DNA from: Leptospiria bacterium | GTDB taxonomy: Bacteria > Spirochaetota > Leptospiria > Turneriellales > CBDBES01 | Reading direction: 5' to 3' | DNA length: 64,000 bases | NCBI GenBank assembly: GCA_965261485.1 | Contig: CBDHCY010000005.1 | Location: 1,484,901 to 1,548,900 of the forward strand | Shown here: positions 2,449-64,000 of the stretch, piece by piece | How the letters are laid out: every line of letters begins with the position of its first letter | How positions within the stretch are numbered: position 1 is the stretch's first letter | Notes under the pieces: generated by a model | The model's database searches: none | What the model saw: only the letters and a program-made list of their open reading frames with translations | What the model was told of the DNA's origin: nothing | Translations under genes and position numbers: made by a program

Positions 2449-4475
2449 TTATAGTGGCGGCATTGGCTGATACTCATAAGCACCCATGTCAATGAGAGGG
2501 CCTGCACTAGCAGACTTGCCCTTTACAATACGAGGCTTGCCGGCTAGGTCTAGGGCACCTGCTGGGAATAAAGGCGTCCCAGTAGGCCCATTACTACCCG
2601 CATCAATCGCAGGTGAACCCATCATTAAACTTAAATCATCATCGAGCGTGCCAAAAACATTATCAACACCATCGGCGTCTGCAAACAGAAGGTCATCATC
2701 AGCAGCGTCAATGTTATTACCAGTATTACCAGAAGCACAACTATTAGACCCCGTCCACCAATCGGTACTCACAGTACTATCACTACAATCTTGAATCAGG
2801 CTGTGTGAAATAGTAACTGTATCAGCAGAATCTCGATTACAAAAATTCATATTACCTTGGGGACTGCCTCCAGTACAAGCCGTCGCTGTATTGTCCCACA
2901 TAATGACATTGATCAAAATAAGACCAGAAGCGGTATTTACCATACCGCCACCGCCACCATTACTAGTGGCTGTATTGCCTGAAAAAATAACATTATTCAA
3001 AGTTACATCAGTACCATTATTACGCATACCGCCACTAGAAAAATCAGCCTTATTACCTGAGAAAATAACATTACTCAAAATAAAACGAAGACCAGTAATA
3101 ATAAATAGACCGCCTCCAGCATCATTAGACTTATTACCTGAGAAAATAACATTACTCAATGTTAAATCATCACTAGCACTACTAAACATACCGCCGCCAC
3201 CAGTAGCACTGCCAGCACTCAAACCAGCAGCACGATTACCTGAGAAAATAATATTACTTAATATTAAATTATTACCCTGTAAATTATAAAGACCGCCGCC
3301 ATTCGATCTCACTTGACCAGTACCATTTGATTGACCAGCTGTAATCGTAAACCCGTCTAAAGTTGTATTAGCCGCCCCTGTAACAACCGTATAAACATTG
3401 TTACCCTTAATATCGCTAGTAACTGTGGTGCTACCAGTCATAACTCGATTGGTCGTTTCTGTAACGCCATCAGCATTAACCGTGTCATTATTATCAATGT
3501 CACCGCTGAGAATAGTTTTATTCACCCGCCAGTTACGCTCACTTAATAAAGTATCTGCGACATCAAAACCACCATAGACCTTGACATTTGATTTCAATTG
3601 AAAAGTAGCATCTCTTCTATCAGAAGTTGTAGACGTAGGCTTATAAATACCTTTAGCCACCACAATCTTATTAGTGCCTGCAGAAGATGTTAACGCTAAG
3701 TTTAGAGAGCTATAAGCATTCGACCAACTCGTGCCATCATCCGTGCCATTCGCAGCAGCATTCACAAAAATAATTTTATCAGAGCTTTTCGTTGCTTCGA
3801 TCTCAACACCCGCGGCGTAATTATGGCTTGCATCATAAGCGAAGATTTTATAATAGTAGGCGGTGTTTACCGTTGCGGCACTAACGCCGAAATCAGAAGA
3901 ATTAGCACTCTGCACCACCTCTGAGCCACCAATATCACCACCAACCGTATATTCTTCACCAGCACTAGGCACGTCTACTATTGAGCTTGTATTTCTTAAG
4001 ATTAAAACACCAGAGAAATCAGCATCTGTCGGGTTTGCCCAAACAATCACGTTTAAGTCTCCAAAAGTAGCACCACTCACCACGGCTGGTGCCTCTGTAT
4101 CTGTTGGATCAGAATTTGTTCCACCGGGATTTGTTCCGCCGGGATTCTTGCCACCGGGATCTGTTGGGTCAGGATTTTTCCCGCCGGGCTCTATTGGCAC
4201 AGCCGGATCTTTAGCATCGTCGGAGCAAGAGACGTTAAAGGCAAAAAAAATAAGGATTAATAATAAACCTTGAGTAACCTTGAGTAACCTTGAGTAACCT
4301 TGAGTAACCTTGAGTAACCTTGAGTAACCTTGAGTAACCTTGAGTAACCTTGAGTAACCTTGAGTAACCTTGAGTAACCTTGAGTAACCTTGAGTAACCT
4401 TGAGTAACCTTGAGTAACCTTGAGTAACCTTGAGTAACCTTTGTGAGTTGATTTAAGTGCTTTTAATAGTTTCAT
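2449..4475 (-). CDS. P1: phase-variable Pmp-like / choice-of-anchor-Q-like beta-helix surface lipoprotein; leader and body currently out of frame (OFF)
   Basis: Body ORF 2449-4200 (583 aa) plus leader ORF 4257-4475 (MKLLKALKSTHK followed by repeat-encoded GYSRLLKVTQ...). Body features: lipobox segment GLLLILIFFAFNVSC|SDDAKDP readable upstream in the body frame; Pro/Gly linker PGGKNPDPTDPGG; Fn3-like block (ADFSGVLILRNT...YYYKIFAYDASHNY); repeated LSNVIFSGNxA...GGG[LM] beta-helix units; C-terminal DADGVDN..SPAIDAGS..DLAGKPRIV..IDMGAYE. The frame breaks only at the 17-unit decamer tract. Confidence 0.8.
4268..4441 (-). repeat. decamer tract, 17 perfect copies of CCTTGAGTAA (coding strand TTACTCAAGG)
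   Basis: Counted directly: units run from 4268 to 4437, then a partial CCTT. The tract lies between the ATG (4475) and the lipobox codons. Confidence 0.95.
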
Positions 4476-7534: not shown

Positions 7535-8469
7535 AAATTCAAAGTTAAATTGAGGTTCAGCCTACTTTTTTATTGTGATAGTGGCGGCATTGCCTGAAAC
7601 CCATAAACACCCATCAAATTCAAATTCAAATTGACAATTAAAAATGGAAAATTAAAAGTTCAGCCTACTTTTTTATTGTTATAGTGGCGGCATTGCCTGA
7701 AACCCATAAACACCCATCAAATTCAAATTCAAATTGACAATTGAAAATAGAAAATTGAGGTTCAGCCTACCTTTTTATTATGATAGTGGCGGCATTGCCT
7801 GAAACCCATAAACACCCATCAAATTCAAATTCAAATTGACAATTGAAAATAGAAAATTGAGGTTCAGCCTACCTTTTTATTATGATAGTGGCGGCATTGG
7901 CTGAGCTTCATAAGCACCCATCAAATTGAAAGTTGAAATTGACAATTGAAAGTGGAAAATTAAAAATTCAGCCTACCTTTTTATTGTTATAGTGGCGGCA
8001 TTGCCTGAAACCCATAAACACCCATCAAATTCAAATTCAAATTCAAATTCAAATTGAAAGTTGAAAATGGAAAATTAAAAGTTCAGCCTACTTTTTTATT
8101 GTGATAGTGGCGGCATTGCCTGAAACCCATAAACACCCATCAAATTCAAATTAAAATTGACAATTGAAAGTGGAAAATTGAGGTTCAGCCTACCTTTTTA
8201 TTGTGATAGTGGCGGCATTGGCTGAGCTTCATAAGCACCTATCAAATTGAAAGTTGAAAGTGGAAAATTGAGGTTCAGCCTACTTTTTTATTGTTATAGT
8301 GGCGGCATTGGCTGAGCTTCATAAACACCCATCAAATTCAAATTCAAATTCAAATTGAAAATGGAAAATTGAGGTTCAGCCTACTTTTTATTGTTATAGT
8401 GGCGGCATTGGCTGAGCTTCATAAGCACCCACCAAATTGACAATTGAGGTTCAGCCTACCTTTTTATTG
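7535..8469 (-). repeat. 3'-tail cassette array A3 (9 extra units) between the P3 stop and the P2 promoter
   Basis: Nine copies of ATAGTGGCGGCATTG[GC]CTGA... precede the true P3 end at 8470. There are two tail alleles (GAGCTTCATAAGCACCC and GAAACCCATAAACACCC) and one hybrid (GAGCTTCATAAACACCC, about 8310). Confidence 0.9.
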
Positions 8470-10471: not shown

Positions 10472-10475
10472 GTCT

Positions 10476-10504
10476 TCTTATCGTACACAAGGATAATCTG
10501 TCAA
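10476..10504 (-). promoter_or_regulatory. candidate promoter of P3 (TTGACA-17-ATAAGA)
   Basis: Same sequence and spacing as P1 and P2. The -10 is at 10481-10476 and the -35 at 10504-10499. Confidence 0.35.
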
Positions 10505-10756
10505 TAAAAAAATGTTTTTTATAATTTATGAATAAATGAAATGAGTAAAAAAATCAAATATAATAAAATTATATTTGATAAATTCCATGCATAAAATAAA
10601 ATGACTCGCATTATATATACTCATCTAAAATTAATCGTAAGAAAAGAGTATTTATAAAAGGAGTTAATAAAAGCGATAAAATTATCGCTTCATTAAAACT
10701 AAATTGACATAGTATTGTGATCATATTAGTTTTAATGAAGAAATAAAAGTAAATAG

Positions 10757-12787
10757 ATGCCCACTTTAAAAAAAACTAAAGAATCGTTACTCCCATGGAA
10801 AAAAGAATTTTTTAAAAATATTGGTGTTTTTGAATCATTGGGGTTGCCAAAAGAAAAAGCTCAAGAGCTTCTAAATGGTTTTTTACAACTAATCAATAAA
10901 AGAGGAATACCTAAAGTTTTAGACGTTCTTCATGATGTTTCTAAATTATCAAAATTAGGAACATATACAGAGCACGAAAAGGAAGTTAGAGGGTTTATGA
11001 GTAAATTTCTTTCGCCTTTTTTATCTAAATTTAAACTCAAAGGAGAAAAGAATCTTGAAATATTAGCACAACTGATTGGAAAATTTCCCATTACGATTGT
11101 AGCGAATCATATTAGTCATTTTGATGCTGGTGTACTATTTATGGTGCTTTATAAAGAAGGAGGTTTAGCCCGTAAATTAGCGGAAAATATGGTATTCATT
11201 GCTGGTAGGCCTGTTTTTCAAACACATTTTACCCGTGCTGCTTTAGGAATGCTTAATAGCCTTTTGGTTTGTTCTCGTAAAGATCTTGTAGATAATATGG
11301 GCGCTGCTGATATCATGACAAAAGTCAATATACATTCTTTTAGACATTCAAATAGACTCCAAAAAGAAGGCAAGATCATTGTCATATTTCCAGAAGGAAC
11401 AAGAAGTAGAACAGGTCAGTTGCTTAAATTTGTAGATACTGTTTATCATTATGTCGCCAATAAAATTGTGATTCCTATCTCTTTATCTGGAACCGATGAT
11501 GTTTTACCTCCAAATTCTTTTATCTTTAATTCAGTAGCTGGCAGTATCACGATCGATAAACCTGTTTTTATATCTAGTTCAAAAAATAAGATCCCTCCTG
11601 AATTACCTGATACAATTCATCAGATTTTCCCTACAGAAGATAAAAATAAAAAAACTTACTGTCTTGATTCTCTTGCAACGCTTATTGGAAAAAACCTAGA
11701 GATTCATCGTCATGGTGCGTATCGAAATTTATACCAAGATGACCTTAATGTAAGTGAAAAAAATGTTCTTATTCGGGTTAATAAAAAATCTAGCCAAAAT
11801 ATTGTAGTAATTGGGCATTCAAATTTTTCTACAGCGATTGCTTCTGTGCTTGCAAATAAAAAAAATGTTAATATTAAAATATTTATTCATGATAAAAAAA
11901 AGATAAATTCTTTTAATGCTGATCAGTATGATCTTGAAAACTATCCTTTTTTTAAATTACCTCCTAATATTAAATTTACTTCTGATATTGAGGCAATCAA
12001 AAAAGGAACAATTTTTATTCAAGCGGTTCAGCCATGGATGTTAGATATTTATTATGACAACTTAGTGCCTATTTTAAAAAATACTGAAGGAGCTATTATC
12101 AATGTTATGAAAGGCTTTACAAAATCTCAGTACGGACTCATTTTGTCTGATCTTGAAAAAATATATGGGTTAAAACGTAATAGATTGGTTGCTTTAGCGG
12201 GTTCTAATTATCCTGATCAAATTATGGAGAGAAAAATTACGGGTTTTGAATTAGCTGCTGGTGAGCCGAAGTTACTAAACGATTTAATTTATCTTTTTAA
12301 TACTGGTTATATCTCCACTCATCGAGCAGCTATTTCCAATGATATCAAAGGAGTTCAAATTGGTGGTTCTCTTCGCACTATTTATGCCATGTTAATTGGA
12401 ATGCTTGATGCTTATTACGAAAAAAGATTAGGCGGAAATAACGACAGCACTTTATTTCATTTATCAAATAAAATGTTTTTAGAGATGGTCACACTTGGAG
12501 TTAAAATGGGAGGTAAACGTGAAACTTTTTACGGGCTATCCGGATTAACCGACTTAATGCTTACTTGCTTTGGTTTTGATACACGAGATCGTCATTATGG
12601 CCATGAGTTTATTTTTGGTAGAGCAAATTCTCTCAAAAAATCTTCGGGAATAAGGAATCTTCAAACTTTAACACGTCTTCTAGAAACTGATATAAAAGAA
12701 TATCCCCTTTTATCGATTATCACTCAAATAATCTTAAATAAAGCAACTCCTGAGAAAGTCTTAAAAAGGATTCTTCTTTCGTACTGA
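10757..12787 (+). CDS. fusion protein: N-terminal lysophospholipid (PlsC-type) acyltransferase and C-terminal glycerol-3-phosphate dehydrogenase (GpsA)-like domain
   Basis: Acyltransferase HX4D motif NHISHFD and FPEGTRS in the N-terminal half. The C-terminal half aligns by eye with GpsA (DIKGVQIGGSLRTIYAM and GLSGLTDLMLTC..DTRDRHYG). Confidence 0.7.
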   Translation: MPTLKKTKESLLPWKKEFFKNIGVFESLGLPKEKAQELLNGFLQLINKRGIPKVLDVLHDVSKLSKLGTYTEHEKEVRGFMSKFLSPFLSKFKLKGEKNLEILAQLIGKFPITIVANHISHFDAGVLFMVLYKEGGLARKLAENMVFIAGRPVFQTHFTRAALGMLNSLLVCSRKDLVDNMGAADIMTKVNIHSFRHSNRLQKEGKIIVIFPEGTRSRTGQLLKFVDTVYHYVANKIVIPISLSGTDDVLPPNSFIFNSVAGSITIDKPVFISSSKNKIPPELPDTIHQIFPTEDKNKKTYCLDSLATLIGKNLEIHRHGAYRNLYQDDLNVSEKNVLIRVNKKSSQNIVVIGHSNFSTAIASVLANKKNVNIKIFIHDKKKINSFNADQYDLENYPFFKLPPNIKFTSDIEAIKKGTIFIQAVQPWMLDIYYDNLVPILKNTEGAIINVMKGFTKSQYGLILSDLEKIYGLKRNRLVALAGSNYPDQIMERKITGFELAAGEPKLLNDLIYLFNTGYISTHRAAISNDIKGVQIGGSLRTIYAMLIGMLDAYYEKRLGGNNDSTLFHLSNKMFLEMVTLGVKMGGKRETFYGLSGLTDLMLTCFGFDTRDRHYGHEFIFGRANSLKKSSGIRNLQTLTRLLETDIKEYPLLSIITQIILNKATPEKVLKRILLSY

Positions 12788-15824: not shown

Positions 15825-15873
15825 ATAAAATACTTGCTTTGGGGTAATTGTTGTCGCTACCTCTACCCAACAA

Positions 15874-16315
15874 GCAAGGCACCACTCGTAACTGGCGGTC
15901 AACCACTCTCGCCCAAGCGAGCAAGGCACCACTCGTAACTGTTGGTCAACCACTCTCGCCCAGCGAGCAAGGCACCACTCGTAACTGGCGGTCAACCACT
16001 CTCGCCCAAGCGAGCAAGGCACCACTCGTAACTGGCGGTCAACCACTCTCGCCCAAGCGAGCAAGGCACCACTCGTAACTGTTGGTCAACCACTCTCGCC
16101 CAGCGAGCAAGGCACCACTCGTAACTGGCGGTCAACCACTCTCGCCCAAGCGAGCAAGGCACCACTCGCAACTGGCGGTCAACCACTCTCGCCCAGCGAG
16201 CAAGGTACCACTCGTAACTGGCGGTCAACCACTCTCGCCCAAGCGAGCAAGGCACCACTCGCAACTGGCGGTCAACCACTCTCGCCCAGCGAGCAAGGCA
16301 CCACTCGTAACTGTT
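15874..16315. repeat. GC-rich 46/47-bp tandem minisatellite (9 full units plus a partial unit)
   Basis: The unit is GCAAGGCACCACTCGTAACTGGCGGTCAACCACTCTCGCCCAAGCGA. Unit starts are at 15874, 15921, 15967, 16014, 16061, 16107, 16154, 16200, 16247 and 16293, giving lengths 47, 46, 47, 47, 46, 47, 46, 47 and 46. The array fills the convergent gap between murA and the 1150-aa surface protein gene. Confidence 0.9.
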
Positions 16316-16325
16316 GATTGTCCGT

Positions 16326-19300
16326 CTATCGTTGTTGCCCAGCGATCAGATCGCCGTATGACCCACACAAATCAGTGATGGATAGGGTGCTCGTATCAAC
16401 GGTTGAGACGCAAAGCTTAACCGCAGGCAACTGCTCGTCGGTTCCTAGCTCCCAAGCTTTTGTGTCATCCTCCATCATATCGTTAGGAGTCATATCATGA
16501 GGCAAACCATCAGGATGCATGCCACTTATGGCTTTTAGTTGCATTAACGTAAGGCCCGTCGCACCTGATACGTCCGTCACCATCACAACACCTCCCATTT
16601 CTGAAACCGCAGCATTACCCTGTGCCCGCTTGGGGCTTTGGGGAGTCACAGTCATTCCATTAGTTATTTCTTGAGATACCTCTGTATTCCAATAACTATC
16701 TGTAACTGTTAAAGAAGTCAAAGGATTATCAAAATAACCCACTAAACCGCCAGAATAAAGATTGGAGGATCCAGATCCAGACTCGGATTCAGACTCAGAT
16801 TCAGACTCAGATTCAGACTCAGATTCAGATTCAGAGGACCCAAAGGAATTAGAGGAAGAAATTTCAGCAGAACATGCCATCATGGAGGGGGGGCTGCTCA
16901 TAGAAGGGGGGCTGCTCACAGGAGGACAATCAAGCCCACCAAAATAACTATTCTCAATTGTCAAAAATTTAGAATAACCCACTAATCCACCAGAAGCAGC
17001 TTTAGAAGAAGAAGAAGAAGAGATTTTACCAAGACCAGTAAAATAACTATTCTCAATTGTCAAATTAGCACGCATGCCCGTTTCACCTACAATACCACCA
17101 GAATAAGAAGAAGAGGAAGAAGAGGAAAGAGGCTGAAAAGAAGAAGAAGATAAAATATTAATATCTCCACTAAAATAACTATTTTGAATTATTAAATCAG
17201 TTTCAGCATACCCAACGAGACCTCCAGAAGCAGAAAATCTATTAGTATTAAAAGATAATTTAGAAGAAGAGATTTCACTTTCATCACTACCAGAGAAAGA
17301 ACTATAACTATTGATAATTGTTATGGCAATATCAGCATCAGTCATTCTAGAGATTAATGTCTTACCCACCAGACCGCCAGCAGTAGAAGAAAAAGAAGAA
17401 GCAAGAGAAGTGATTTTATTGTTACCACTACCAGAGAAAGAACTATAACTATTGATAATTGTTATAGCAAAATTAGAGGTATTAGAATTATCCAATCCAG
17501 CTTGACCGATTAGCCCGCCAGATGAAGAACGAGAAGCAGAAGAAGAAATTTTTTTCTCACCATTACCAGAAAAAAAACTACGACTATTGTCAATTGTGAG
17601 ATTAATATTGACAGGGTTATCAGAACTGCAATCAGAGTTATCAGAATTGCAATCAGACATAAGTATTTGACCCATCAACCCACCAGATGAAGAACGAGAA
17701 ACAGAAGTGCTAGAAGAAGCAGAAGTGATTTTATGAGCATAATTACCAGAAAAAGAACTAAAACTATTCTTAATCATTATATCAGCATTCGTATTTGATA
17801 CCTCAGTGTGCCCTATTAAACCACCAGAAAAAGAAAGCTCTAAAGAGAAAGAAGAGATTTTATCATCATCATCACCAATACGAATACCAGAGAAAGAACT
17901 AGAACTGTTCTTAATCATTATATTGTTAGCCTTTCCCATAATCTTCAAAGATTTCACATTGCCCACCAAGCCACCGGAAAAAGAAGAGGAAGAAGAAGAA
18001 GAAATGATTTCATTACCAGAGAAAGAACTACCCGTTATCGTCAATGAACCAATTATACGACCTGCTAAACCACCTGAGTAAGCGAAAGATCGATCACGAC
18101 CAGCCATTACAACAGGAGCATAAGATAAGGCTCCGCCACCAGAAAAACTACTATTTGTGATCATCAAATTAACGAAAGCCCCCCCCACTAAACCGCCCGA
18201 ATAAGAATAAGAACAATTACCGTTAAAAGTAGAGATCAAACAAGCATCAACAGAAGACGAATAAGAAGAAACTTCATTAAATCCACTAAAAGTACAATTT
18301 TCGATCGCCAAAGAAGATTTAGCATAACCGACCAAACCACCTGAATAAGCAACACCAGAACTGAAAGCACGGGAATATATCGAACCCAAACTGACCTCCA
18401 CGTTGCGTATTTCAGATTCTCCACCATCGGTAGCACCAAACAGACCAGCGTAAACTTCATCTGACTGAGAACGAATATTCACCCATAGGTTGGTTATGGT
18501 ATGTCTATTACCTTCAAAAATACCCGTGAAGGGATTATTACCATCACCAATAGGTATCCAACTAATGTCTTTGTTTGTATCAATGACACTTACTTGATCA
18601 TTTGAGTCAGAAGTATTACTATTACCATTTTTATCAATGTCAACCATCGTTGTATCAATACCCCTACTTTTATTTGCATCAAGCAAACTCAAAAGATCAA
18701 TGTTCGTTGTCAACTCATAGCCTTTACAGACACCCGATGGGCAACCACCTGAAATACCAGGATCACTACTCGAAGTTTTATAGCTAGCACCCGATAAATC
18801 GTAGCGAATGTTGTGGAGCATTATATCATTATCAATTTCGATGAGACCATCGTGATCCATGTCAACCTCATCATTATTGATCAAAGAAAATGCAACCTCT
18901 TCAAGATTTGAAAAACTAACTTGGTTAAAATTTGAATCAGTCGTGGTTACACGATGTTTAAGAGTATAAAAAAAATCATAGCTCTTTTCAGAATCTTCGA
19001 GATAGCAAATTTCAATCTCTTTAGATATATTAAAATTTGTGGAATCAAAAGTAATACTTGTTGGGTCTATGCTTGGCATCACTCTAAAAGGTAGAATTGT
19101 CTCTGAATAAATCTCGATGGTGAGGTTAGTAATAGGTCTTTTATCCACCAAAGTTGATCTTGTTCTTGAATCAATCTCTATTGTGAAATCAGTATTCGTT
19201 TCTTCTAACAAACGTATTGAATAATGTCCGCAAGTTCCTCCTTCATTAAGGTTAATATTCCGTGCAGTTATTGTTACTCCTTTAAGTTTAAGTGAAGTAT

Positions 19301-19778
19301 TATTGATAAAATGAGCGATAAGGTTCGGAAAACGAGCAAAAGTCATTTGATTAAAGCTTGGCTGATTGCTTGCTATACGATGCTTTATGATATAATAAAA
19401 ATCATCATTTCTCACAGTATCTTCAGGGTAACCGATTACAACTGTTTGAGCTTTATTAAAATTGGTGACATTAAAAGTAATGCTTGTTGGGTTTATTCTT
19501 GGTATTACTCCAAAAGGTGGGGATGTATCTGAATAAATTTCAACAGTGAGGTCAGTACTAGGTTTTTTTGACAAACGTATTGAATAACCAACCTCAGTTC
19601 CCTTTTTGACGGTAATCTCTTGCATATTTAGTATCAGCCTGAGAGTAGTGCCCTTTTTAGCAATTTCGGGAGGTGGTACTACATTTGAACACCGAAGAAA
19701 AAAAAGACAAGTAAGGATAATAATAATAAATATCTGCTTTAGGTGAATAAGAATGAGATTTTTAATCGTCTGTTTCAT
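16326..19778 (-). CDS. large Ser-rich secreted/surface protein with GLUG-motif beta-helix repeats
   Basis: N-terminal hydrophobic signal; three ~100-aa related Ig/Calx-like modules (TVEIYSDTSPPFGVIPRINPTSITF, TIEIYSETILPFRVMPSIDPTSITF); a GLUG-type entry segment (WIPIGDGNNPFTGIFEGNRHTITNLWV...YAGLFG); many SGGL[VIM]G repeats separated by Ser-rich SSFSG modules; and an (SE)n run. Confidence 0.7.
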   Translation of the reverse strand: MKQTIKNLILIHLKQIFIIIILTCLFFLRCSNVVPPPEIAKKGTTLRLILNMQEITVKKGTEVGYSIRLSKKPSTDLTVEIYSDTSPPFGVIPRINPTSITFNVTNFNKAQTVVIGYPEDTVRNDDFYYIIKHRIASNQPSFNQMTFARFPNLIAHFINNTSLKLKGVTITARNINLNEGGTCGHYSIRLLEETNTDFTIEIDSRTRSTLVDKRPITNLTIEIYSETILPFRVMPSIDPTSITFDSTNFNISKEIEICYLEDSEKSYDFFYTLKHRVTTTDSNFNQVSFSNLEEVAFSLINNDEVDMDHDGLIEIDNDIMLHNIRYDLSGASYKTSSSDPGISGGCPSGVCKGYELTTNIDLLSLLDANKSRGIDTTMVDIDKNGNSNTSDSNDQVSVIDTNKDISWIPIGDGNNPFTGIFEGNRHTITNLWVNIRSQSDEVYAGLFGATDGGESEIRNVEVSLGSIYSRAFSSGVAYSGGLVGYAKSSLAIENCTFSGFNEVSSYSSSVDACLISTFNGNCSYSYSGGLVGGAFVNLMITNSSFSGGGALSYAPVVMAGRDRSFAYSGGLAGRIIGSLTITGSSFSGNEIISSSSSSSFSGGLVGNVKSLKIMGKANNIMIKNSSSSFSGIRIGDDDDKISSFSLELSFSGGLIGHTEVSNTNADIMIKNSFSSFSGNYAHKITSASSSTSVSRSSSGGLMGQILMSDCNSDNSDCSSDNPVNINLTIDNSRSFFSGNGEKKISSSASRSSSGGLIGQAGLDNSNTSNFAITIINSYSSFSGSGNNKITSLASSFSSTAGGLVGKTLISRMTDADIAITIINSYSSFSGSDESEISSSKLSFNTNRFSASGGLVGYAETDLIIQNSYFSGDINILSSSSFQPLSSSSSSSYSGGIVGETGMRANLTIENSYFTGLGKISSSSSSKAASGGLVGYSKFLTIENSYFGGLDCPPVSSPPSMSSPPSMMACSAEISSSNSFGSSESESESESESESESESESGSGSSNLYSGGLVGYFDNPLTSLTVTDSYWNTEVSQEITNGMTVTPQSPKRAQGNAAVSEMGGVVMVTDVSGATGLTLMQLKAISGMHPDGLPHDMTPNDMMEDDTKAWELGTDEQLPAVKLCVSTVDTSTLSITDLCGSYGDLIAGQQR
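16766..16838 (-). repeat. in-frame hexa/dodecanucleotide repeat encoding (SE)n-GSGS
   Basis: Iterations of TCAGACTCAGAT encode SESESESESESESESESGSGSS. Confidence 0.85.
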
Positions 19779-49982: not shown

Positions 49983-50192
49983 CAAATGGAGGTTCAGCCT
50001 ACCTTTTTATTGTTATAGCGGTGGCATTGCCTGAAACTCATAAACACCCATCAAATTCAAATTGAAAGTTGAAAATGGAAAATTGAGGTTCAGCCTACTT
50101 TTTATTGTTATAGCGGCGGCATTGGCTGAGCTTCATAAGCACCCATCAAATTGAAAGTTGAAAATGGAAAATTGAAGGTTCAGATTACTTTT
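49983..50192 (-). repeat. 3'-tail cassette array A4 (2 units) downstream of P4
   Basis: Units at about 50012 (TATAGCGGTGGCATTGCCTGAAACTCATAAACACCC) and about 50108 (TATAGCGGCGGCATTGGCTGAGCTTCATAAGCACCC). Confidence 0.85.
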
Positions 50193-52122
50193 TTATTGAC
50201 TTTCGTAAGCACCCATATCTATGCTACTGCCTACAATACGAGCCTTGCCTGCTAGGTCGGTGGCACCTGCTGGGAATAAAGGCATCCCAGGAGGCCCATT
50301 ACTACCCGCATCAATCGCAGGTGAAGTCGCCATTAAACGTAAATCGTCATCAAACAGAGGGTCAGCGTCAATATTATTACCACCATCGCCATTATTGCCA
50401 GTGCTATCATCACCGTCATTATCGTCGCCACAACTACTAGTGCCCATTGCCCAAGTGGAACCACTAGCACCACAACCTTGAATCAAGCTGTGTGAAATAT
50501 TAATTATCCTATTATTAGTAGACGATCTGTTACTGCAAATATTCTGATTACCTCGGAAACTCCCTCCAGTACAAGTGCCCGCTGTATTGCCCCACATAAT
50601 GACATTAGTCAAGGTGACGGTATTTTCATTTTGAAAAAAAGCAGCTCCCCCAGCATCAGTAGCCGTATTATTTGAAAAGACAACATTATTTAAAGTGAAA
50701 TTAACAGCCGCCCTATCACTCTGCAGACCGCCACCATTAACATCAGACGTATTATCTGAAAAGACAACATTCTCTAAAATTCCATCATACCCCTCATTAT
50801 ACAGACCGCCGCCGCCCAGCCTAAAGCCGTTTGGGTCAACGCTTGCATTGCCTGAAAAAAAAACATTACTTAAATTAATAGTACTACCAACACTAGAAGA
50901 TAGTAATAGACCACCGCCACCATTAGCCGTATTACCGAAGAAAATAATATTACTCAAAGTTACATTATCATTATTTACATTACGCATACCGCCACCAAAA
51001 GCATTCCTTGGCACATTAATATCAGAACCATTTGATTGACCAGCTGTAATCGTAAAGCCCTCTAAAGTTGTATTAGACGCCCCTATAACAACCGTATAAC
51101 TATTACTACCCACAATGTGACTAGCATTTTCTATAATGCCATCATCATTAGAATCAGTATCGTCACCACCAATGTCACCGCTGAGAATAGTTTTATTCAC
51201 CCGCCAGTTACGCTGACTCAATGAATGCTCTGTACCCACGAAACCACCATAGACCTTGACCTTTGATACCAATTGAAAAGTAGCATTTCTATCAGAAGTT
51301 GTAGACGTAGGCTTATAAACACCTTTAGCCACCACAATCTTATTAGTGGCTACAGAAGATGTTAACGCTGAGTTTAGAGAGCTATAAGCATTCGACCAAC
51401 TCGTGCCATCACCCGTACCACTAGCAGCAGCATTCACAAAAATAATTTTACCTGATCGTCTTGTTGCTTCAATCTCAACACCCGCAGCGTAATTATGGCT
51501 TGCATCATAAGCAAAAATTTTATAATAGTAAGAAGTGCCTACCGTTGCGGTACTAACGCCGAAATCAGAAGAATTTGCACTCTGCACCACCTCTGAGCTA
51601 TCAATATCATCACCAACCGTATATTCTGTACCAGCACTAGGGGCGTCTACTATTGAGACTGTGTTTCTTAAGATTAAAACACCAGAGAAATCAGCATCCG
51701 CTGGGTTCATCCAAGTGATTACATTTAATAAGTCTCCAAAAGCAACGCCACTCACCACAGCTGGTGGCTCTGTATCTGTTGGATCAGGAATCGTTGGCAT
51801 ATTCGGATTTGTTCCGCCGGGATTCTTTCCACCGGGATTTGTTGGGTCAGGATTTTTCCCACTGGGCTCTATTGGCACAGCCGGACCTTTAGCATCGTCA
51901 GAGCAAGAGACGTTAAAGGCAAAAAAAATAAGGATTAATAATAAACCTTGAGTAACCTTGAGTAACCTTGAGTAACCTTGAGTAACCTTGAGTAACCTTG
52001 AGTAACCTTGAGTAACCTTGAGTAACCTTGAGTAACCTTGAGTAACCTTGAGTAACCTTGAGTAACCTTGAGTAACCTTGAGTAACCTTTTGAGTTGATT
52101 TAAGTGCTTTTAATAGTTTCAT
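50193..52122 (-). CDS. P4: phase-variable beta-helix surface lipoprotein paralog, currently OFF
   Basis: Body ORF 50193-51878 (561 aa, ends IDMGAYESQ*) plus leader ORF 51913-52122 (MKLLKALKSTQKVTQGYSRLLKV...FIINPYFFCL*). Confidence 0.8.
51946..52089 (-). repeat. decamer tract, 14 perfect copies of CCTTGAGTAA
   Basis: Counted directly: units run from 51946 to 52085, followed by CCTTTTGAG. Confidence 0.95.
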
Positions 52123-52126
52123 GTCT

Positions 52127-52155
52127 TCTTATCGTACACTAAAACAGTCTGTCAA
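52127..52155 (-). promoter_or_regulatory. candidate promoter of P4 (TTGACA-17-ATAAGA)
   Basis: Minus strand reads TTGACAgactgttttagtgtacgATAAGAagacATG. The -10 is at 52132-52127 and the -35 at 52155-52150. Confidence 0.35.
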
Positions 52156-52212
52156 TAAAAAAATGTTTTTTTGATAATTTCTGAATACTTTGAAATTTAA
52201 AGACATCTAATT

Positions 52213-52422
52213 AAATTCAAATGGAGGTTCAGCCTACTTTTTTATTGTTATAGTGGCGGCATTGGCAGAGCTTCATAAAGCATCCACCAAATTCAAATCG
52301 AAAGTGGAAAATTGAGAGTTCAGCCTACTTTTTTATTGTTATAGCGGTGGCATTGGCTGAGCTTCATAAGCACCCATCAAATTCAAATTGAAAATTGAAA
52401 ATGGAAGGTTCAGATTACTTTT
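52213..52422 (-). repeat. 3'-tail cassette array A5 (2 units) downstream of P5
   Basis: Units at about 52248 and about 52342 (TATAGTGGCGGCATTGGCAGAGCTTCATAAAGCATCC and TATAGCGGTGGCATTGGCTGAGCTTCATAAGCACCC). Confidence 0.85.
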
Positions 52423-54315
52423 TTATTGACTTTCGTAAGCACCCATATCTATGCTATTGCCTACAATACGAGCCTTGCCTGCTAGGTCTAGGGCACCAGT
52501 TGCGAATAAAGGCATTCCAGTAGGCCCATTACTACCCGCATCAATCGCGGGTGAACCCGCCTTTAAACGTAAACCATCATCGGCCGTACCAAAAATATTA
52601 TCAGCACCATTGGGGTCATCAGCGTCTGCAAACAGAGGGTTATTACTATCAATATTATTACCAGTATTACCAGAAGCACAACTATTAGCATGCGTTGATG
52701 CCCACCAATTGGTATCCGTGCTACAACCTTGAATCAGGCTGTGTGAAATAGTAACTGCAACAAGCATACCGCCGCTACAAAAATTAGCATTACCTTTGGC
52801 ACTGTTTCCAGTACAAGCCATCGCCGTATTGCCCCACATAATGACATTAGTCAAAGTAAGATCAGCAGAAGCATTTGACAGACCGCCACCAGTAGTACCA
52901 GACTCATTGCCTGAGAAAATAACATTACTCAAAGTTAAACGAGGACTAGCATTACGCATACCGCCACCAAAAACAGCAGACTTATTGTCTGAGAAAATAA
53001 TATTACTCAAAGTTAAACTGAAATCAGAACTAGACAAACCGCCGCCACCAAAAGAGCTAACACGCTGATTACTGGCTGTATTGCCCGAGAAAATAATATT
53101 ACTCAAAATTAAATTCCTACCAACATTGTACATACCGCCGCCAGAATCGGCTGTATTGCCTGAGAAAATAATATTACTCAAAATTAAATTATCACTAGAA
53201 CTATGCATACCGCCCCCCAGAATAACGACACCAATACCCCTACTGGCATTTGATTGACCAGCTGTAATCGTAAAGCCCTCTAAAGTTGTATCACCCGCCC
53301 CTGTAACAACCGTATAACTATTACTACCATTAATATCGCTAGTAGCTGTGGTGCTACCAGAACTAACTCGATTGGTCGTTTCTGTAACGCCATCAGCATT
53401 AACCGTGTCATTATTATCAATGTCACCGCTGAGAATAGTTTTATTCATCCGCCAGTTACGCTCACTTAATAAAGTATCTGCGACATCAAAACCACCATAG
53501 ACCTTGACCCCTGATATCAATTGAAAAGTAGCACTTCTATCAGAAACTGAAGGTGGAGACACTAAAGGCATCGCAAGTGTAGTAGGCTTATAAACACCTT
53601 TAGCCACCACAATTTTATCACCAGTGGTGGCGACGACTCCTTCAGCAGGAGGTTTTAACACCGACCGTAGATCGCTATAAGCATTCGACCAACTCGTGCC
53701 ATCACCCGTACCACTAGCAGCAGCATTCACAAAAATAGTCTTATCAGAACTTTTTGTTGCTTCGATCTCAACACCCGCGGCGTAATTATGGCTTGCATCA
53801 TATGCGAAGATTTTATAATAGTAAGAAGTGCCCATCGTTGCGGCACTAACGCCGAAATCAGAAGAATTTGCACTCTGCACCACCTCTGAGCTACCAATAT
53901 CACCACCAACCGTATATTCTTTACCAACACTAGGAGCGTCGTCTGTTATTGAGACTGTATTTCTTAAGATTAAAACCCCAGAGAAATCAGCATCTGTCGG
54001 GTTTGCCCAAACAATCACGTTTAAGTCTCCAAAAGTAGCACCACTCACCACAGCTGGTGGCTCTGTATCTGTTGGATCAGGAATCGTTGGCATATTCGGA
54101 TTTGTTCCGCCGGGATTCTTTCCACCGGGATCTGTTGGGTCAGGGTTCTTTCCGCCGGGCTGTGTTGGCACAGCCGGATCTTTAGCATCGTCAGAGCAAG
54201 AGACGTTAAAGGCAAAAAAAATAAGGATTAATAATAAACCTTGAGTAACCTTGAGTAACCTTGAGTAACCTTGAGTAACCTTTTGAGTTGATTTAAGTGC
54301 TTTTAATAGTTTCAT
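52423..54315 (-). CDS. P5: beta-helix surface lipoprotein paralog, intact and in frame (ON)
   Basis: Single 630-aa ORF: MKLLKALKSTQKVTQGYSRLLKVTQG-LLLILIFFAFNVSC|SDDAKDPAVPTQPGGKNPDP..., followed by the Fn3-like block, FSGN/GGG repeats and a C-terminal ...IDMGAYESQ*. The decamer tract has 4 units. Confidence 0.88.
   Translation of the reverse strand: MKLLKALKSTQKVTQGYSRLLKVTQGLLLILIFFAFNVSCSDDAKDPAVPTQPGGKNPDPTDPGGKNPGGTNPNMPTIPDPTDTEPPAVVSGATFGDLNVIVWANPTDADFSGVLILRNTVSITDDAPSVGKEYTVGGDIGSSEVVQSANSSDFGVSAATMGTSYYYKIFAYDASHNYAAGVEIEATKSSDKTIFVNAAASGTGDGTSWSNAYSDLRSVLKPPAEGVVATTGDKIVVAKGVYKPTTLAMPLVSPPSVSDRSATFQLISGVKVYGGFDVADTLLSERNWRMNKTILSGDIDNNDTVNADGVTETTNRVSSGSTTATSDINGSNSYTVVTGAGDTTLEGFTITAGQSNASRGIGVVILGGGMHSSSDNLILSNIIFSGNTADSGGGMYNVGRNLILSNIIFSGNTASNQRVSSFGGGGLSSSDFSLTLSNIIFSDNKSAVFGGGMRNASPRLTLSNVIFSGNESGTTGGGLSNASADLTLTNVIMWGNTAMACTGNSAKGNANFCSGGMLVAVTISHSLIQGCSTDTNWWASTHANSCASGNTGNNIDSNNPLFADADDPNGADNIFGTADDGLRLKAGSPAIDAGSNGPTGMPLFATGALDLAGKARIVGNSIDMGAYESQ
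54239..54282 (-). repeat. decamer tract, 4 perfect copies of CCTTGAGTAA
   Basis: Counted directly: units run from 54239 to 54278, followed by CCTTTTGAG. Confidence 0.95.
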
Positions 54316-54547: not shown

Positions 54548-56656
54548 TTATTGACTTTCGTAAGCACCCATATCTATGCTACTGCCTACAATACGAGGGT
54601 TGCCGGCTAGGTCTAGGGCACCAGTTACGAATAAAACTTTCGTATTATCACTAGGATCAACATTACTACCCGCATCAATCGCGGGTGAACCCGCCCTTAA
54701 ACGTAAATCGTCATCAAACAGAGGGTCAGCGTCAATGTTATTACCACCATCAGTGCCGCATCTACTGAGATTAGTTGCTGAGCTCCAAATGGAAGAACCA
54801 CTAACACCACAATCTTGAATCAAGCTATGTGAAATAGTAGGCTGTACATTGAAGGTGCAAAAATTAACATTACCCTTAAAATTGTCTCCAGTACAAGCAG
54901 CCCCTGTATTGCCCCACATAATGACATTGGTCAAGATAGCAACAGCACTTCCAGTATTTTTGCGAATTTGACTTCCTCCACCTACATTAGTAGCTGTATT
55001 GTTTGAAAAAACAACATTAGTCAAGGTTAAATTAGCATCAACACTTTGTATACCGCCACCAAAACTGGCCATATTGCCTGAAAAAGCAACATTGGTTAAA
55101 ATAGCACCACCACCACGAATAGTAAGACCACCTCCACCCAAAATAGTAGCTGTATTGTTTGAAAAAACAATATTAGTTAAGGTTAAATTATCACTACCCT
55201 TAGCATAAAAACCGCCACCAACATTGGCTGCATTGCCTGAAAAAGTAATATTAGTTAAAGTTAAATTATGATTATCTATATTATACACGCCACCACCCCT
55301 ATTAATATAATTACCGGTACCTGCAGGAGCATTTGATTGACCAGCTGTAATCGTAAAACCGTCTAGAATGGCATCGCTCGCCCCTGTAACAACTGTATAA
55401 CTATTATTAGCGATTACAGTCATCATACCACCAGCATCCACCATTTCGGTACCCTTAATGTCATCAGCATTTTCTATAATGCCATCACGATTAGAATCAG
55501 TATCGTCACCACCAATGTCACCGCTGAGAATAGTTTTATTCACCCGCCAGTTACGCTCACTTAACGAGGCATCTGCGACATCAAAACCACCATAGACCTT
55601 GACATTTGATATCAATTGAAAGGTAGCATTTCTCCCAAGAGTTGAAAGTGTAGACCTAGGCTTATAAATACCTTTAGCCACCACAATCTGAACTGGTAGA
55701 GTCTCAGTCGCATCATCAGCTATTTTAGATTCTAACGCTGAGTTTAGGGAGCTGTAAGCATTCGACCAACTCGTGCCATCACCCGTGCCACTCGCAGCAA
55801 CATTCACAAAAATAATTTTATCAGAGATTTTCGTTGCAGAGATCTCAAAACCTGTGGCATAGTTACGGTTTGTATCATAAGTGAAGATTTTATAATAATA
55901 CTTTTTATAACGGTAAGGAATATTTTCTCCATCCTGTTCCCTTATATCTGTGAGGTCAAAGTCAAGAGATTTTGCATCGTGCACCACCTCTGAGGCACCA
56001 ATTGAAACACCAACCGTATATTCTTTACCAGCACTAGGGGCGTCTACTATTGAGCTTGTATTTCTTAAAATTAAAACTTTAGAGAAATCAGCATCTGTTG
56101 GGTTTAACCAAGTGATTTTGTTCGTGAAATCACTAAAAGTAACATCGCTCACCTCAGCTGGTGGCACTGTATCTGTCGGATTGGTTTTTGTCGAACCAGG
56201 TGTTTTGTAGTCAGCCAGTGCTGGTATATATTTATTAACCTTAGTCTGAACACCGTTGTTGTAGTAGAGATAAGTGTCACAGACAAAGATTTTATAAAAA
56301 TAAACGACATCCTCTACAACTTCTGTGTCTCTAAAAGTTGGTGCGGCTGCGTTATAGGCTACCCGTGAGGCTCCCATTGCGGTGAAGACAGGATAATCTC
56401 GCCAAGGTCTAGGAAAACCTTGGATAGCACTTGTATTCTTTAAGATTAGAACCTTATTGTAGATGTTACGGCCTCTACTCGCAGGATTCTTCCATGCTAG
56501 GGTTATCCCGCTTGAATTACGATTAACGGTAAGATCTGTGACTTCTGGTAGAGGGTCATCCAACCCATTCAAAAAATATGCACGACCAATTTTAGTGCAA
56601 TGCAGGAAAATCAGTAGGAAAAAAAAACTTATAAAAAATAGAAATCTTGAGTTCAT
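54548..56656 (-). CDS. P6: beta-helix surface protein paralog, long form with a duplicated Fn3-like domain and no decamer switch
   Basis: 702-aa intact ORF. It has a different signal peptide (MNSRFLFFISFFFLLIFLHC), two Fn3-like modules (…VYFYKIFVCDTYLYY and …YYYKIFTYDTNRNY), TLTN[IV]xFSxNxA..GGG repeats, and ends IDMGAYESQ*. Confidence 0.85.
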   Translation of the reverse strand: MNSRFLFFISFFFLLIFLHCTKIGRAYFLNGLDDPLPEVTDLTVNRNSSGITLAWKNPASRGRNIYNKVLILKNTSAIQGFPRPWRDYPVFTAMGASRVAYNAAAPTFRDTEVVEDVVYFYKIFVCDTYLYYNNGVQTKVNKYIPALADYKTPGSTKTNPTDTVPPAEVSDVTFSDFTNKITWLNPTDADFSKVLILRNTSSIVDAPSAGKEYTVGVSIGASEVVHDAKSLDFDLTDIREQDGENIPYRYKKYYYKIFTYDTNRNYATGFEISATKISDKIIFVNVAASGTGDGTSWSNAYSSLNSALESKIADDATETLPVQIVVAKGIYKPRSTLSTLGRNATFQLISNVKVYGGFDVADASLSERNWRVNKTILSGDIGGDDTDSNRDGIIENADDIKGTEMVDAGGMMTVIANNSYTVVTGASDAILDGFTITAGQSNAPAGTGNYINRGGGVYNIDNHNLTLTNITFSGNAANVGGGFYAKGSDNLTLTNIVFSNNTATILGGGGLTIRGGGAILTNVAFSGNMASFGGGIQSVDANLTLTNVVFSNNTATNVGGGSQIRKNTGSAVAILTNVIMWGNTGAACTGDNFKGNVNFCTFNVQPTISHSLIQDCGVSGSSIWSSATNLSRCGTDGGNNIDADPLFDDDLRLRAGSPAIDAGSNVDPSDNTKVLFVTGALDLAGNPRIVGSSIDMGAYESQ

Positions 56657-62084: not shown

Positions 62085-64000
62085 TTATTGGCCTTCATAA
62101 GCACCCATATCTATGCGATCGTTTACAATACGAGGGTTGCCGGCTAGGTCGGTGGTTATCTCAGCGGGTAGCCCACCATTGTCGGCCGTACTACCCACAT
62201 CAATCGCAGGTGAACCCGTATTTAAACGTAAATTGTCATCAAGCGTACCAACAACATTATCAGCACCATCGGCGTCTACAAACATTGGATAATTAGCATA
62301 ACCAGCAGCTGTCGGGTCACCATCAATATTATTACCACCATCGCCATTATTGCCAGTGCTATCATCACCATCATTATCGTCGCCACAACTGCTAACACCC
62401 GTTGCCCAAGTGGAACCACTAACACCACAACCTTGAATCAAGCTGTGTGAAATATTAATTGTCCTGGTATCACCAGACAATTTGCTACTGCAAATATTCT
62501 GATTACCTCGGGAATTCGCTCCAGTACAAGTGCCCGCTGTATTGCCCCACATAATGACATTGATCAAGATAATACTTCCAGCTCCATAAATACTACTTCC
62601 TCCACCTCCATCAGCAGTAGCTGTATTGTTTGAAAAAACAACATTAGTCAAGGTTAAATTAGCATGAGTACTCCGTGTACCGCCACCAAAAGGGGCCATA
62701 TTGCCTGAAAAAGCAACATTGGTTAAAATAGCACTACTACGAAAATTAGTAAGACCACCACCACCTAGATTGGAAGCAGTGTTCCCAAAAAAAAGAATAT
62801 TAGTTAATATTAAATTATTACTATTTCTACTATACACACCGCCGCCACCACCGGCTGCATTGCCTGAAAAAGTAATATTAGTTAAGGTTAAATTATGATT
62901 ATCTATATTATACACGCCACCACCCCTATTAGTATGGTTAAAGGTACCAGTAGGACCATTTGATTGACCAGCTGTAATCGTAAAACCATCTAAAATGGCA
63001 TCACTCGCCCCTGTAACAACTGTATAACTATTATTAGCGATTACAGTCATCATACCACCAGCATCCGCCATTTCGGTACCCTTAATGTCATCAGCATTTT
63101 CTGTAACGCCGGCAGCATTAACAGTGTCGTCACCACCAAGATCACCGCTTAAAATGGGTTTGTTCACCCGCCAGTTACGCTCACTTAATGAGGTCTCTGT
63201 ACCACTAAAACCACCATAGACCCTGACATGTGATATCAATTGAAAAGTAGCATCTCGATCAGAAACTAAAGACGTAGGCTTGTAAACACCTGCAGCCACC
63301 ACAATTTGAACTGGTAGAGCCGAGGTCGCGGCAGTGGCTGTAGAAGATGTTAACGCTGAGCTTAAATCGCTAAAAGCATTCGACCAACTCGTGCCATCAC
63401 TCGAACCACTCGCACCACCCGCAGCATTAACAAAAATAGTCTTATTAGTATTTTTCGTTGCAGAGATTTCAACACCCGCGGCATAATTACGGCTTGCATC
63501 ATAAGCGAAGATTTTATAAAAATAAAGAGTGCCCGCCGTTGCCGCTCTAACGCTGAAATCAGGAGAATTGGCATTGTACACCACCCGTGAAGTACCAATT
63601 GAAGCATCAACTATATATTCTTCACCAGCACTAGGGCCATCTATTATTGAGATTGTATCTCTTAAGATTAAAACCTTAGAGAAATCAGCATCCGCTGGGT
63701 TTATCCAAGTAATTACATTTAATAAGTCTCTAAAAGTAACATCGCTCACCTCAGCTGGTGATTGTGTATCAGCTGGTGGTGGTATATATTTATTAACCTT
63801 AGTCTGAACGCCGAAATTGTAATAAAGATAAGTGTCAGAGACAAAGACTTTATAAAAATAAACGACATCCTCTACAACTTCTGTGTCTCTAAAAGTTGGT
63901 GCGGCTGCGTTATAGACTACCCGTGAGACTCCCATTGTGGTGGAGACAGGATAATCTCGCCAATGTTTAGGAAAATCTTGGATAGCACTTGTATTCTTTA
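62085..64000 (-). CDS. P7: beta-helix surface protein paralog (long form like P6); the N-terminus lies beyond the window end
   Basis: ORF track 62085-63935. The frame stays open to 64000: hand translation gives ...KNTSAIQDFPKHWRDYPVSTTMGVS, parallel to P6 KNTSAIQGFPRPWRDYPVFTAMGAS. Ends IDMGAYEGQ*. Confidence 0.85.
   Translation of the reverse strand, partial: KNTSAIQDFPKHWRDYPVSTTMGVSRVVYNAAAPTFRDTEVVEDVVYFYKVFVSDTYLYYNFGVQTKVNKYIPPPADTQSPAEVSDVTFRDLLNVITWINPADADFSKVLILRDTISIIDGPSAGEEYIVDASIGTSRVVYNANSPDFSVRAATAGTLYFYKIFAYDASRNYAAGVEISATKNTNKTIFVNAAGGASGSSDGTSWSNAFSDLSSALTSSTATAATSALPVQIVVAAGVYKPTSLVSDRDATFQLISHVRVYGGFSGTETSLSERNWRVNKPILSGDLGGDDTVNAAGVTENADDIKGTEMADAGGMMTVIANNSYTVVTGASDAILDGFTITAGQSNGPTGTFNHTNRGGGVYNIDNHNLTLTNITFSGNAAGGGGGVYSRNSNNLILTNILFFGNTASNLGGGGLTNFRSSAILTNVAFSGNMAPFGGGTRSTHANLTLTNVVFSNNTATADGGGGSSIYGAGSIILINVIMWGNTAGTCTGANSRGNQNICSSKLSGDTRTINISHSLIQGCGVSGSTWATGVSSCGDDNDGDDSTGNNGDGGNNIDGDPTAAGYANYPMFVDADGADNVVGTLDDNLRLNTGSPAIDVGSTADNGGLPAEITTDLAGNPRIVNDRIDMGAYEGQ

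Follow-up and report, generated by a model that had tools for sequence, protein, structure and literature searches.

The closest described counterpart of the system reported here is the Opa (P.II) family of Neisseria, in which CTCTT pentamers in the leader-peptide coding region switch paralogous genes independently, at about 1e-3 per generation, and in which recombination diversifies the copies (PMC3960869; PMC3899988). The instability of such repeats is determined mainly by their purity and by the number of units (PMC3899988), the N-terminal enrichment of simple sequence repeats has been discussed (PMC3315296), and in phase variation a repeat unit of 1-5 nt is the norm, with units of 6-9 nt being rare (PMC4692102). 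Here we analyze a 64,000-nt stretch of DNA (the window) from a Leptospiria bacterium (assembly GCA_965261485.1, contig CBDHCY010000005.1, positions 1,484,901 to 1,548,900), in which five paralogous genes carry a tandem array of a 10-nt unit, ACTCAAGGTT, close behind the start codon. We name the minus-strand paralogs within the window P1-P6, with P4 being the copy flagged by an earlier note on this DNA, and we call a copy ON when it is in frame and OFF when it is out of frame. We consider it probable, at roughly 0.7, that these tracts are decanucleotide slippage switches located in the signal-peptide n-region of a tandem family of beta-helix lipoproteins.

Several other bacterial systems share parts of this arrangement. 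In Helicobacter pylori, oipA/hopH and sabA carry CT dinucleotide repeats in the 5′ signal-sequence region, and in Haemophilus influenzae lic and hgp are tetranucleotide contingency loci. The Pmp proteins of Chlamydia are paralogous beta-helix surface proteins with repeats of the GGA(I/L/V)/FxxN type, some of which switch by poly-G slippage. Tandem arrays of diverged paralogs, mosaic variants, and conserved repeats at the cassette ends are found in the Neisseria pilE/pilS, Borrelia vlsE and Treponema tprK systems.

Results

Anatomy of the P4 tract

Tandem Repeats Finder (TRF) reports the array in P4 as 14.6 copies of a 10-nt unit with 100% matches (51944-52089). As in a contingency locus, the repeat is pure, its unit length is not divisible by 3, and it lies inside the frame, 39 nt after the ATG. 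The features of this locus are as follows.

52123..52290, minus strand: conserved region upstream of P4, with TTGACA at 52155-52150 and the purine-rich AAGAAGAC directly before the ATG
52084..52122, minus strand: P4 start codon (ATG at 52122-52120) and 39-nt prefix, with the DNA sequence ATGAAACTATTAAAAGCACTTAAATCAACTCAAAAGGTT
51944..52083, minus strand: candidate switch tract of P4, 14 perfect ACTCAAGGTT units
51913..51943, minus strand: out-of-frame read-through tail of P4 (...FIINPYFFCL) and its stop, in the frame 0 translation
51903..51944, minus strand: predicted hydrophobic core of the P4 signal peptide and lipobox, LLLILIFFAFNVSC, with the Cys codon at 51905-51903, in frame +1 relative to the ATG
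50193..51944, minus strand: P4 body, 583 codons and stop, comprising a Pro/Gly-rich repeat linker, an N-terminal domain, a predicted beta-helix and a choice-of-anchor Q C-terminus

The tract had been described previously as 37 + 140 nt at 51946-52122, which is the same object read in the TTACTCAAGG register, i.e., as a 37-nt prefix followed by 14 units. The accompanying statement that P4 and P5 share prefix and junction also holds, since the prefix matches at 39/39 positions and the first 56 nt past the tract are likewise identical. This 39-nt prefix sequence is common to P2, P4 and P5, and its product in P4, MKLLKALKSTQKV, corresponds to the positively charged n-region of the signal peptide. 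Each of the three frames of the tract itself is translated as (VTQGYSRLLK)n, and the tract has neither a stop codon (0) nor an ATG, GTG or TTG (0). The DNA directly after it (TATTATTAATCC...) reads in frame +1 as LLLILIFFAFNVSC-SDDAK... and leads through 583 codons up to the stop at 50193, with 0 stops in this body frame vs 33 and 95 in the other two sense frames. The open reading frame (ORF) that begins at the ATG (51913..52122) crosses the tract and meets a stop at 51913-51915, giving a 69-aa OFF product. The presence of 14 perfect decamer copies, at the same position in five paralogs, is far beyond chance.

An alternative in-frame start past the ATG was looked for and rejected, since ATG, GTG and TTG are all absent from the tract and from the body frame ahead of the lipobox. 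The first of them is a GTG at 51878, beyond the Cys, so the OFF state cannot be bypassed by internal initiation. Hairpin-driven instability was ruled out as well, with single-stranded tract DNA being essentially unstructured (minimum free energy -1.8 kcal/mol, z=+3), and unit number would therefore be likely to change by simple out-of-register re-pairing of units, or by unequal exchange.

Frame states of the tract-bearing paralogs

TRF identified five arrays of this unit in the window (AACCTTGAGT as written on the plus strand), at 4266-4441, 7298-7413, 10260-10437, 51944-52089 and 54237-54282, with a purity of 100% in four of the five and of 98% in the third (10260-10437). The six paralogs P1-P6 form two tandem clusters, P3-P2-P1 at 10471-2449 and P6-P5-P4 at 56656-50193, and their frame states are as follows.

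2449..4475, minus strand: P1, 40-nt prefix, 17 units (4435-4266), OFF; ON at n ≡ 0 mod 3, nearest step +1; intact body of 605 codons
5523..7446, minus strand: P2, 39-nt prefix, 11 units (7407-7298), OFF; ON at n ≡ 1 mod 3, nearest step -1; intact body of 591 codons
8470..10471, minus strand: P3, 62-nt prefix, 15 units (10409-10260), OFF; ON at n ≡ 2 mod 3, nearest step -1; intact body of 596 codons
ATG 52122 to stop 50193, minus strand: P4, 39-nt prefix, 14 units, OFF; ON at n ≡ 1 mod 3, nearest step -1 (or +2)
52423..54315, minus strand: P5, 39-nt prefix, 4 units (54276-54237), ON; ON at n ≡ 1 mod 3; 630 aa, uninterrupted
54548..56656, minus strand: P6, tract-free paralog of 702 aa with another lipoprotein-like leader, constitutively in frame

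P5 is thus the only ON copy among the five tract-bearing copies in the window. A prefix variant that is 1 nt longer, CTCACAAAGGTT, is common to P1 and P3, and the prefix of P3 (10409-10471) additionally contains two 11-nt variant units, ACTCAAAGGTT, before its 15 perfect units. As a result of these variants the sets of unit numbers that give an ON gene differ among the paralogs (n ≡ 0, 1 or 2 mod 3). For P4 the ON counts are 1, 4, 7, 10, 13, 16 and so forth, and at all other counts translation ends 2 or 14 codons past the tract, so that changes in unit number toggle the gene between the two states. The OFF peptides range in length from 59 to 80 aa.

Our enumeration over unit numbers agrees with the previous reading of P4, in which a frame offset of 1 means that the loss of one unit restores the frame, and the nearest steps previously given for the OFF copies (+1 for P1; -1 for P2, P3 and P4) are right, with the arithmetic holding for all five copies. 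The earlier note had argued from this that the OFF genes are maintained as switchable genes and are not decaying, because each is a single slippage event from ON. We consider the conclusion probably right, on the evidence given in the next sections, but the argument itself to be invalid. Since 10 mod 3 = 1, in-frame counts occur at every third unit, and any out-of-frame count is exactly one unit from ON; the frame enumeration gives a maximum distance to ON of 1 at any tract length, and the probability that all four OFF loci lie one step away is 1. The proposal to test this proximity statistically against tract-length distributions cannot discriminate either, since its outcome is mathematically fixed. 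The general lesson for the method is that distance to ON carries no information when the length of the repeat unit is not divisible by 3. The 3:1 ratio of -1 to +1 steps is uninformative (two-sided p=0.63), as is the finding of 1/5 copies ON, for which P(<=1 ON)=0.46 under an expectation of 1/3.

Intact bodies and conserved leaders in the OFF copies

Evidence that the OFF copies are live comes from the tracts, the bodies and the upstream regions of these genes, and from the strain differences in unit number and frame state described below, which include an in-frame allele with a long tract (10 units). All tract units in the window are perfect (61/61), and the 190 nt next to the tracts differ between paralogs by 6.3% on average. 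Tracts that are pure despite diverged flanks point to rapid, continual turnover and homogenization of the tracts.

The bodies of the four OFF copies contain 0 stop codons in 583-605 codons, vs 29-41 and 83-95 when the other two sense frames are read, and the divergence among these bodies is 10-26%. Under simulated neutral mutation, the frame stays open in 6% of cases at 5% divergence and in 0.2% at 10%. When the paralog proteins are aligned, every length difference corresponds to a whole-codon indel, and the residues that are invariant in the family are all kept in the OFF bodies.

The upstream region is conserved in the same way. P4 and P5 are 95-100% identical here, the identical stretch comprising about 170 nt before the ATG together with the prefix, and the last ~80 nt before the ATG are conserved in all five tract-bearing paralogs and in three contigs from other strains (see below). 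Conservation of the upstream ~80-170 nt, of the ATG and of the leader is found in ON and OFF copies alike.

Tract length and gene content in other strains

Four contigs (L079-L082) from the ENA assembly ERZ26693861 carry the family, with a coverage of 3-4x judging by the contig names. Where they overlap the window, the housekeeping flanks of L079-L081 match it at 97-98.7% identity, and these contigs therefore derive from other strains of the same species. At the locus between RNase R and SucA, the window contains three genes (P6, P5 and P4; 50193-56656), while L079 contains one (10001-12028) and L080 also one (10001-11851). The L079 gene, P0004, has 10 units, is in frame and encodes 675 aa, and the L080 gene, P0006, has a single unit and is in frame. 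At the acyltransferase/GPDH-priA locus, three genes in the window (P3, P2 and P1; 2449-10471) correspond to one in L081 (420-2387), which has 8 units and is out of frame. Between strains, the gene bodies at a corresponding locus are only 74-87% identical. Unit number is thus polymorphic and the flanks are conserved, with 17, 11, 15, 14 and 4 units in the window and, at low coverage, 10, 8 and 1 in the strain contigs.

The origin of the tract can be traced in paralogs that lack it. The tract-free paralogs P0006, P0011, P0012 and P0017, and the third gene of L082, have a leader of the form MKLLKTLKSTQG-LLLIL..., with one copy of ACTCAAGGTT or of a near variant. This single unit indicates that the tract arose by amplification of a 10-nt piece of an ordinary signal peptide, and the family would therefore be a natural example of a repeat that is traceable to a single-copy segment of an ancestral signal peptide.

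Outside this species, the window SucA (2-oxoglutarate dehydrogenase E1) is 54-57% identical to the proteins of Leptospira/Leptospiraceae and 76-79% identical to those of three metagenome contigs, and this SucA similarity suggests that the source belongs to an uncultured relative of Leptospira with a small genome. On the two sister-species contigs (SucA 76-79% identical) that were examined, no family member is found beside sucA, and the synteny differs. A protein-database search with the N-terminal repeat peptide found no tract-length variants and no OFF peptides, and a family-alignment scan of a collection of representative genomes returned only distant homologues from other phyla (<=34% full-length identity), with no close homologue. 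A search of JGI metagenomes with a query of 2.4 tract units gave one match (L083:2379-2402), on a contig of 63% GC and in an unrelated context, which we treated as chance. At that site about 5 tandem copies of the decamer interrupt an apparent dehydroquinate-synthase-like coding region, which is probably coincidental.

The protein family and its leader

The six complete paralogs have 55-76% protein identity with P5 (n=6), and a seventh, P0015, at 62085-64000, continues past the edge of the window. The family members lie on one contig of 2,133,161 bp, and the GC content of the window is 34%. Four further paralogs elsewhere in the genome, P0007, P0010, P0013 and P0014, have been called only from an internal start (MPIEP or MPTQP).

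The leader follows the pattern MKLLKALKS...LLLILIFFAFNVS-C-SDD, i.e., a charged n-region, a hydrophobic core and NVS-C, and, read by pattern alone, it looks like a lipoprotein signal peptide. The tract sits upstream of the lipobox Cys, so the (VTQGYSRLLK)n segment would be cleaved off with the signal peptide, and the mature protein would be independent of tract length. After the leader, the proteins share a layout of a Pro/Gly-rich linker, a conserved N-terminal domain, a region of GGG...N..TL.N..F.GN repeats and a choice-of-anchor Q C-terminus. The linker is encoded by 15/30-nt repeats (4099-4197, 51805-51866, 54105-54159), and its length varies among the paralogs by whole codons. In the L081 gene the linker position is taken by another 15-nt repeat, CCTGATCCAATGATT x3, with an insertion of 1 nt. 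The choice-of-anchor Q domain (NF041518) scores 38.2 and 38.4 bits in P5 and P6, with a cut-off of 25, and the C-terminus of P4 is the same.

An AlphaFold (AF2) model of P5 has a mean pLDDT of 69 and is confident over roughly residues 190-530. Its neighbours in the PDB, with weak E-values (1e-3 at best), are all right-handed parallel beta-helices, e.g., Rhombotarget A, pectate lyases and tailspikes. The Chlamydia PMP repeat (PF02415) scores 16.6 in P6, vs a cut-off of 20.6, and has no match in P5, and in a precomputed table PF02415 is assigned to P0008, which is the P4 body, as well as to many homologues. Pfam and NCBIfam scans of P5 and P6 gave no match to the Opa family. A predicted beta-helix with a choice-of-anchor Q C-terminus would suit a surface protein. 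Rfam gave no match in the window.

Mosaic paralogs, 3′-end arrays and other repeats

Sliding-window identity shows that P4 is, over alignment columns 900-1100, 62-65% identical to P5 and 82-98% identical to P1-P3, and that P5 matches P1 at 98-99% in two blocks, columns 500-600 and 1100-1200. Such mosaic identity profiles indicate gene conversion among the copies, and they count among the observations in favour of a live switch.

The intergenic region downstream of every paralog is a tandem array with units of 76-109 nt (2210-2484, 4576-5560, 7547-8507, 49984-50198 and 52219-52428; also L082:3340-3580), the one that follows P4 being

49984..50198, minus strand: array downstream of P4, with ~95-nt units that repeat the gene 3′ end

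Each unit, read on the minus strand, consists of the last ~10 codons of the gene, the stop and ~20 nt beyond (AYE[AF]QPMPPL* ... AATAAAAAAGTAGGCTGAAC), and then of AT-rich repeats of the AAATTGA type. The window contains 25 copies of the 3′ end, and only the first after each gene of the P1-P3 type is a real gene 3′ end. Unequal recombination may have left these arrays behind, or may use them as anchors.

A further array, outside the family, is located at 15866-16313, where a 47-nt unit, CCCAAGCGAGCAAGGCACCACTCGTAACTGGCGGTCAACCACTCTCG, is repeated 9.6 times with 94% identity and looks GC-rich for this window. It lies directly downstream of a minus-strand ORF of 1150 aa (16326-19778), which itself contains in-frame repeats at 16768-18003, comprising GATTCA x11, AGA/GAA runs and a 141-nt repeat x2.4, and this suggests a product that is repetitive and possibly variable in length.

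Discussion

The arrangement that we propose is that of a tandemly amplified family of surface lipoproteins, in which each tract-bearing member would carry a hypermutable decamer repeat between its start codon and its hydrophobic core. Slipped-strand mispairing during replication, or unequal recombination, would add or remove 10-nt units, and each such change would shift the frame by one, with one count in three joining the ATG to the signal peptide and body. At the OFF counts, translation would terminate early and give a short peptide, and P4, with 14 units, is OFF in the sequenced consensus. Segmental gene conversion among the paralogs would add sequence variation on top of this on/off switching. 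The anatomy of the tracts, their frames and purity and the intact bodies are observed directly, as is the fact that unit number and frame state differ from paralog to paralog and from strain to strain; slippage, its reversibility and any rate of switching are inferred, and so are export and lipidation of the proteins, their exposure at the surface and any selective benefit.

Several observations weigh against a slippage switch. The dN/dS values among the paralogs (0.63-0.93) fit diversifying selection, and they also fit relaxed constraint. The ON copy, P5, has the shortest tract (4 units), with 11-17 units in the OFF copies, and it could be that a gene tolerates a long tract only in its OFF state; P4 switched ON at 13 units would need a signal peptide that works with an n-region of ~55 residues. 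A consensus scan of the minus strand upstream of P4 found no canonical sigma-70 promoter, with no -10 box at a spacing of 16-18 nt, and the region upstream is a putative promoter. Finally, the sole OFF allele from another strain, in L081, has an extra C in its (CCTGATCCAATGATT)3 linker repeat (~640-700), which places the body in yet another frame. The earlier note had named randomly drifting tract lengths together with accumulating lesions in the gene bodies of related strains as the finding that would speak for decay, and L081 alone leans that way, by this 1-nt linker insertion in an OFF allele; the coverage of L081 is about 3x, and the extra C may therefore be a sequencing error.

These points bear most directly on the explanation that the OFF copies are young pseudogenes, i.e., redundant tandem duplicates in which an unstable leader repeat has drifted and decay has begun, with no selection for switchability. 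Only 1/5 of the tract-bearing copies is in frame, the dN/dS values and the second frameshift in L081 are in keeping with it, four paralogs (P0007, P0010, P0013 and P0014) are called only from an internal start, and the difference in copy number between strains, 3 vs 1 at both loci, shows that copies are dispensable. Pseudogenes that have diverged by 10-26% would nevertheless hardly be expected to leave four OFF bodies without a stop or frameshift and with all family-invariant residues present, nor to keep upstream regions, start codons and signal peptides at 95-100% identity and tracts that are perfectly pure, and the existence of an in-frame allele with a long tract (10 units) also speaks against it, so that we regard early decay as unlikely. 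A second explanation gives the OFF copies a role that does not depend on the tract, as mainly silent donors for gene conversion into an expressed copy, comparable to the donor sites of pilS, vls or tprK, with the frame state being incidental. It draws on the mosaic identity among the paralogs, on the arrays of gene 3′ ends that flank every copy and could anchor recombination, and on the strong differences between strains in the cassettes at a given locus, whose flanks are about 98% identical. Each of the copies is, however, complete as a gene, having its own ATG and an entire signal peptide behind a conserved upstream region, and donation is compatible with tract switching and not an alternative to it; as a replacement for switching we find it quite improbable.

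The unit counts themselves could be an artefact of the assembly consensus, in which case the OFF call for P4 would be unreliable, or would be the majority state of a mixed population. The tracts are perfect repeats of 40-170 nt, P4 and P5 have the same prefix and are also identical over about 170 nt upstream, and the strain contigs have a coverage of 3-4x by name, all of which would favour such an artefact. Five distinct tract lengths are nevertheless present in a single contig of 2.13 Mb, the gene caller used for this genome independently called the OFF copies from internal starts, and a mixed population is itself a prediction of the phase-variation model; an artefact is accordingly very improbable in our view. 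A more elaborate proposal builds on the slippage switch instead of replacing it, as a variation system of two layers, in which the tracts set which of about nine paralogs are exported, the 3′-end arrays and the homogenized 5′ ends anchor the shuffling, deletion and amplification of cassettes, and the length of the n-region might grade export. Such a system has not been described for the Leptospira lineage, and we put it forward as speculation that is rather unlikely to hold in full.

If the tracts do switch, they extend repeat-mediated phase variation to uncultured, small-genome (2.13 Mb) relatives of Leptospira, and they do so with an unusually long unit of 10 nt and in a new family, that of beta-helix lipoproteins with a choice-of-anchor Q domain. 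It is also probable that the proteins of this family are exposed at the surface and subject to fluctuating selection, with a host, a phage or a predator as conceivable agents. Neither a decamer-based switch nor slippage-based phase variation in Leptospira was found in the literature that we searched, the coverage of which was incomplete. By comparison with the systems outlined above, the 10-nt unit, the protein family and the lineage appear to be new, and the mechanism would be of the known Opa kind.

Comparison with known systems

The likeness to the Opa genes of Neisseria is the closest. In both cases the repeat follows closely on the start codon, within the signal-peptide coding region, the length of its unit is not divisible by 3 and every third count gives an ON gene, several paralogous loci each have their own tract and frame state, the residues encoded by the repeat are removed with the leader (as predicted here), and recombination adds further variation. 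The differences are that the unit is of 10 nt here and of 5 nt in Opa, that the repeat here encodes an extension of the charged n-region and not the hydrophobic core, and that the product is predicted to be a lipoprotein-type beta-helix with a choice-of-anchor Q domain, unlike the 8-stranded beta-barrel of Opa, so that it is not a member of the Opa family. The paralogs here also form tandem arrays, and they belong to an uncultured relative of Leptospira in which we infer switching from sequence.

The loci of H. pylori and H. influenzae share with these tracts the translational on/off control of a surface-structure gene by slippage in a 5′ intragenic simple repeat, which here would be the decamer, but their units are of 2-4 nt, they are mostly single loci, and their hosts are established pathogens. 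Chlamydia Pmps resemble the present family in being paralogous surface proteins with a beta-helix (predicted here), some of which switch by slippage (as proposed here), but are autotransporters with a C-terminal beta-barrel and a homopolymer switch, in place of the choice-of-anchor Q domain and putative lipobox found here. With the pilS, vlsE and tprK systems the family has in common the tandem diverged paralogs, the mosaics and the repeats at cassette ends. Unlike the promoterless silent cassettes of pilS and vls, each copy here comes with its own ATG and leader and a conserved region upstream, with its frame being set by the tract and not by the lack of an expression site.

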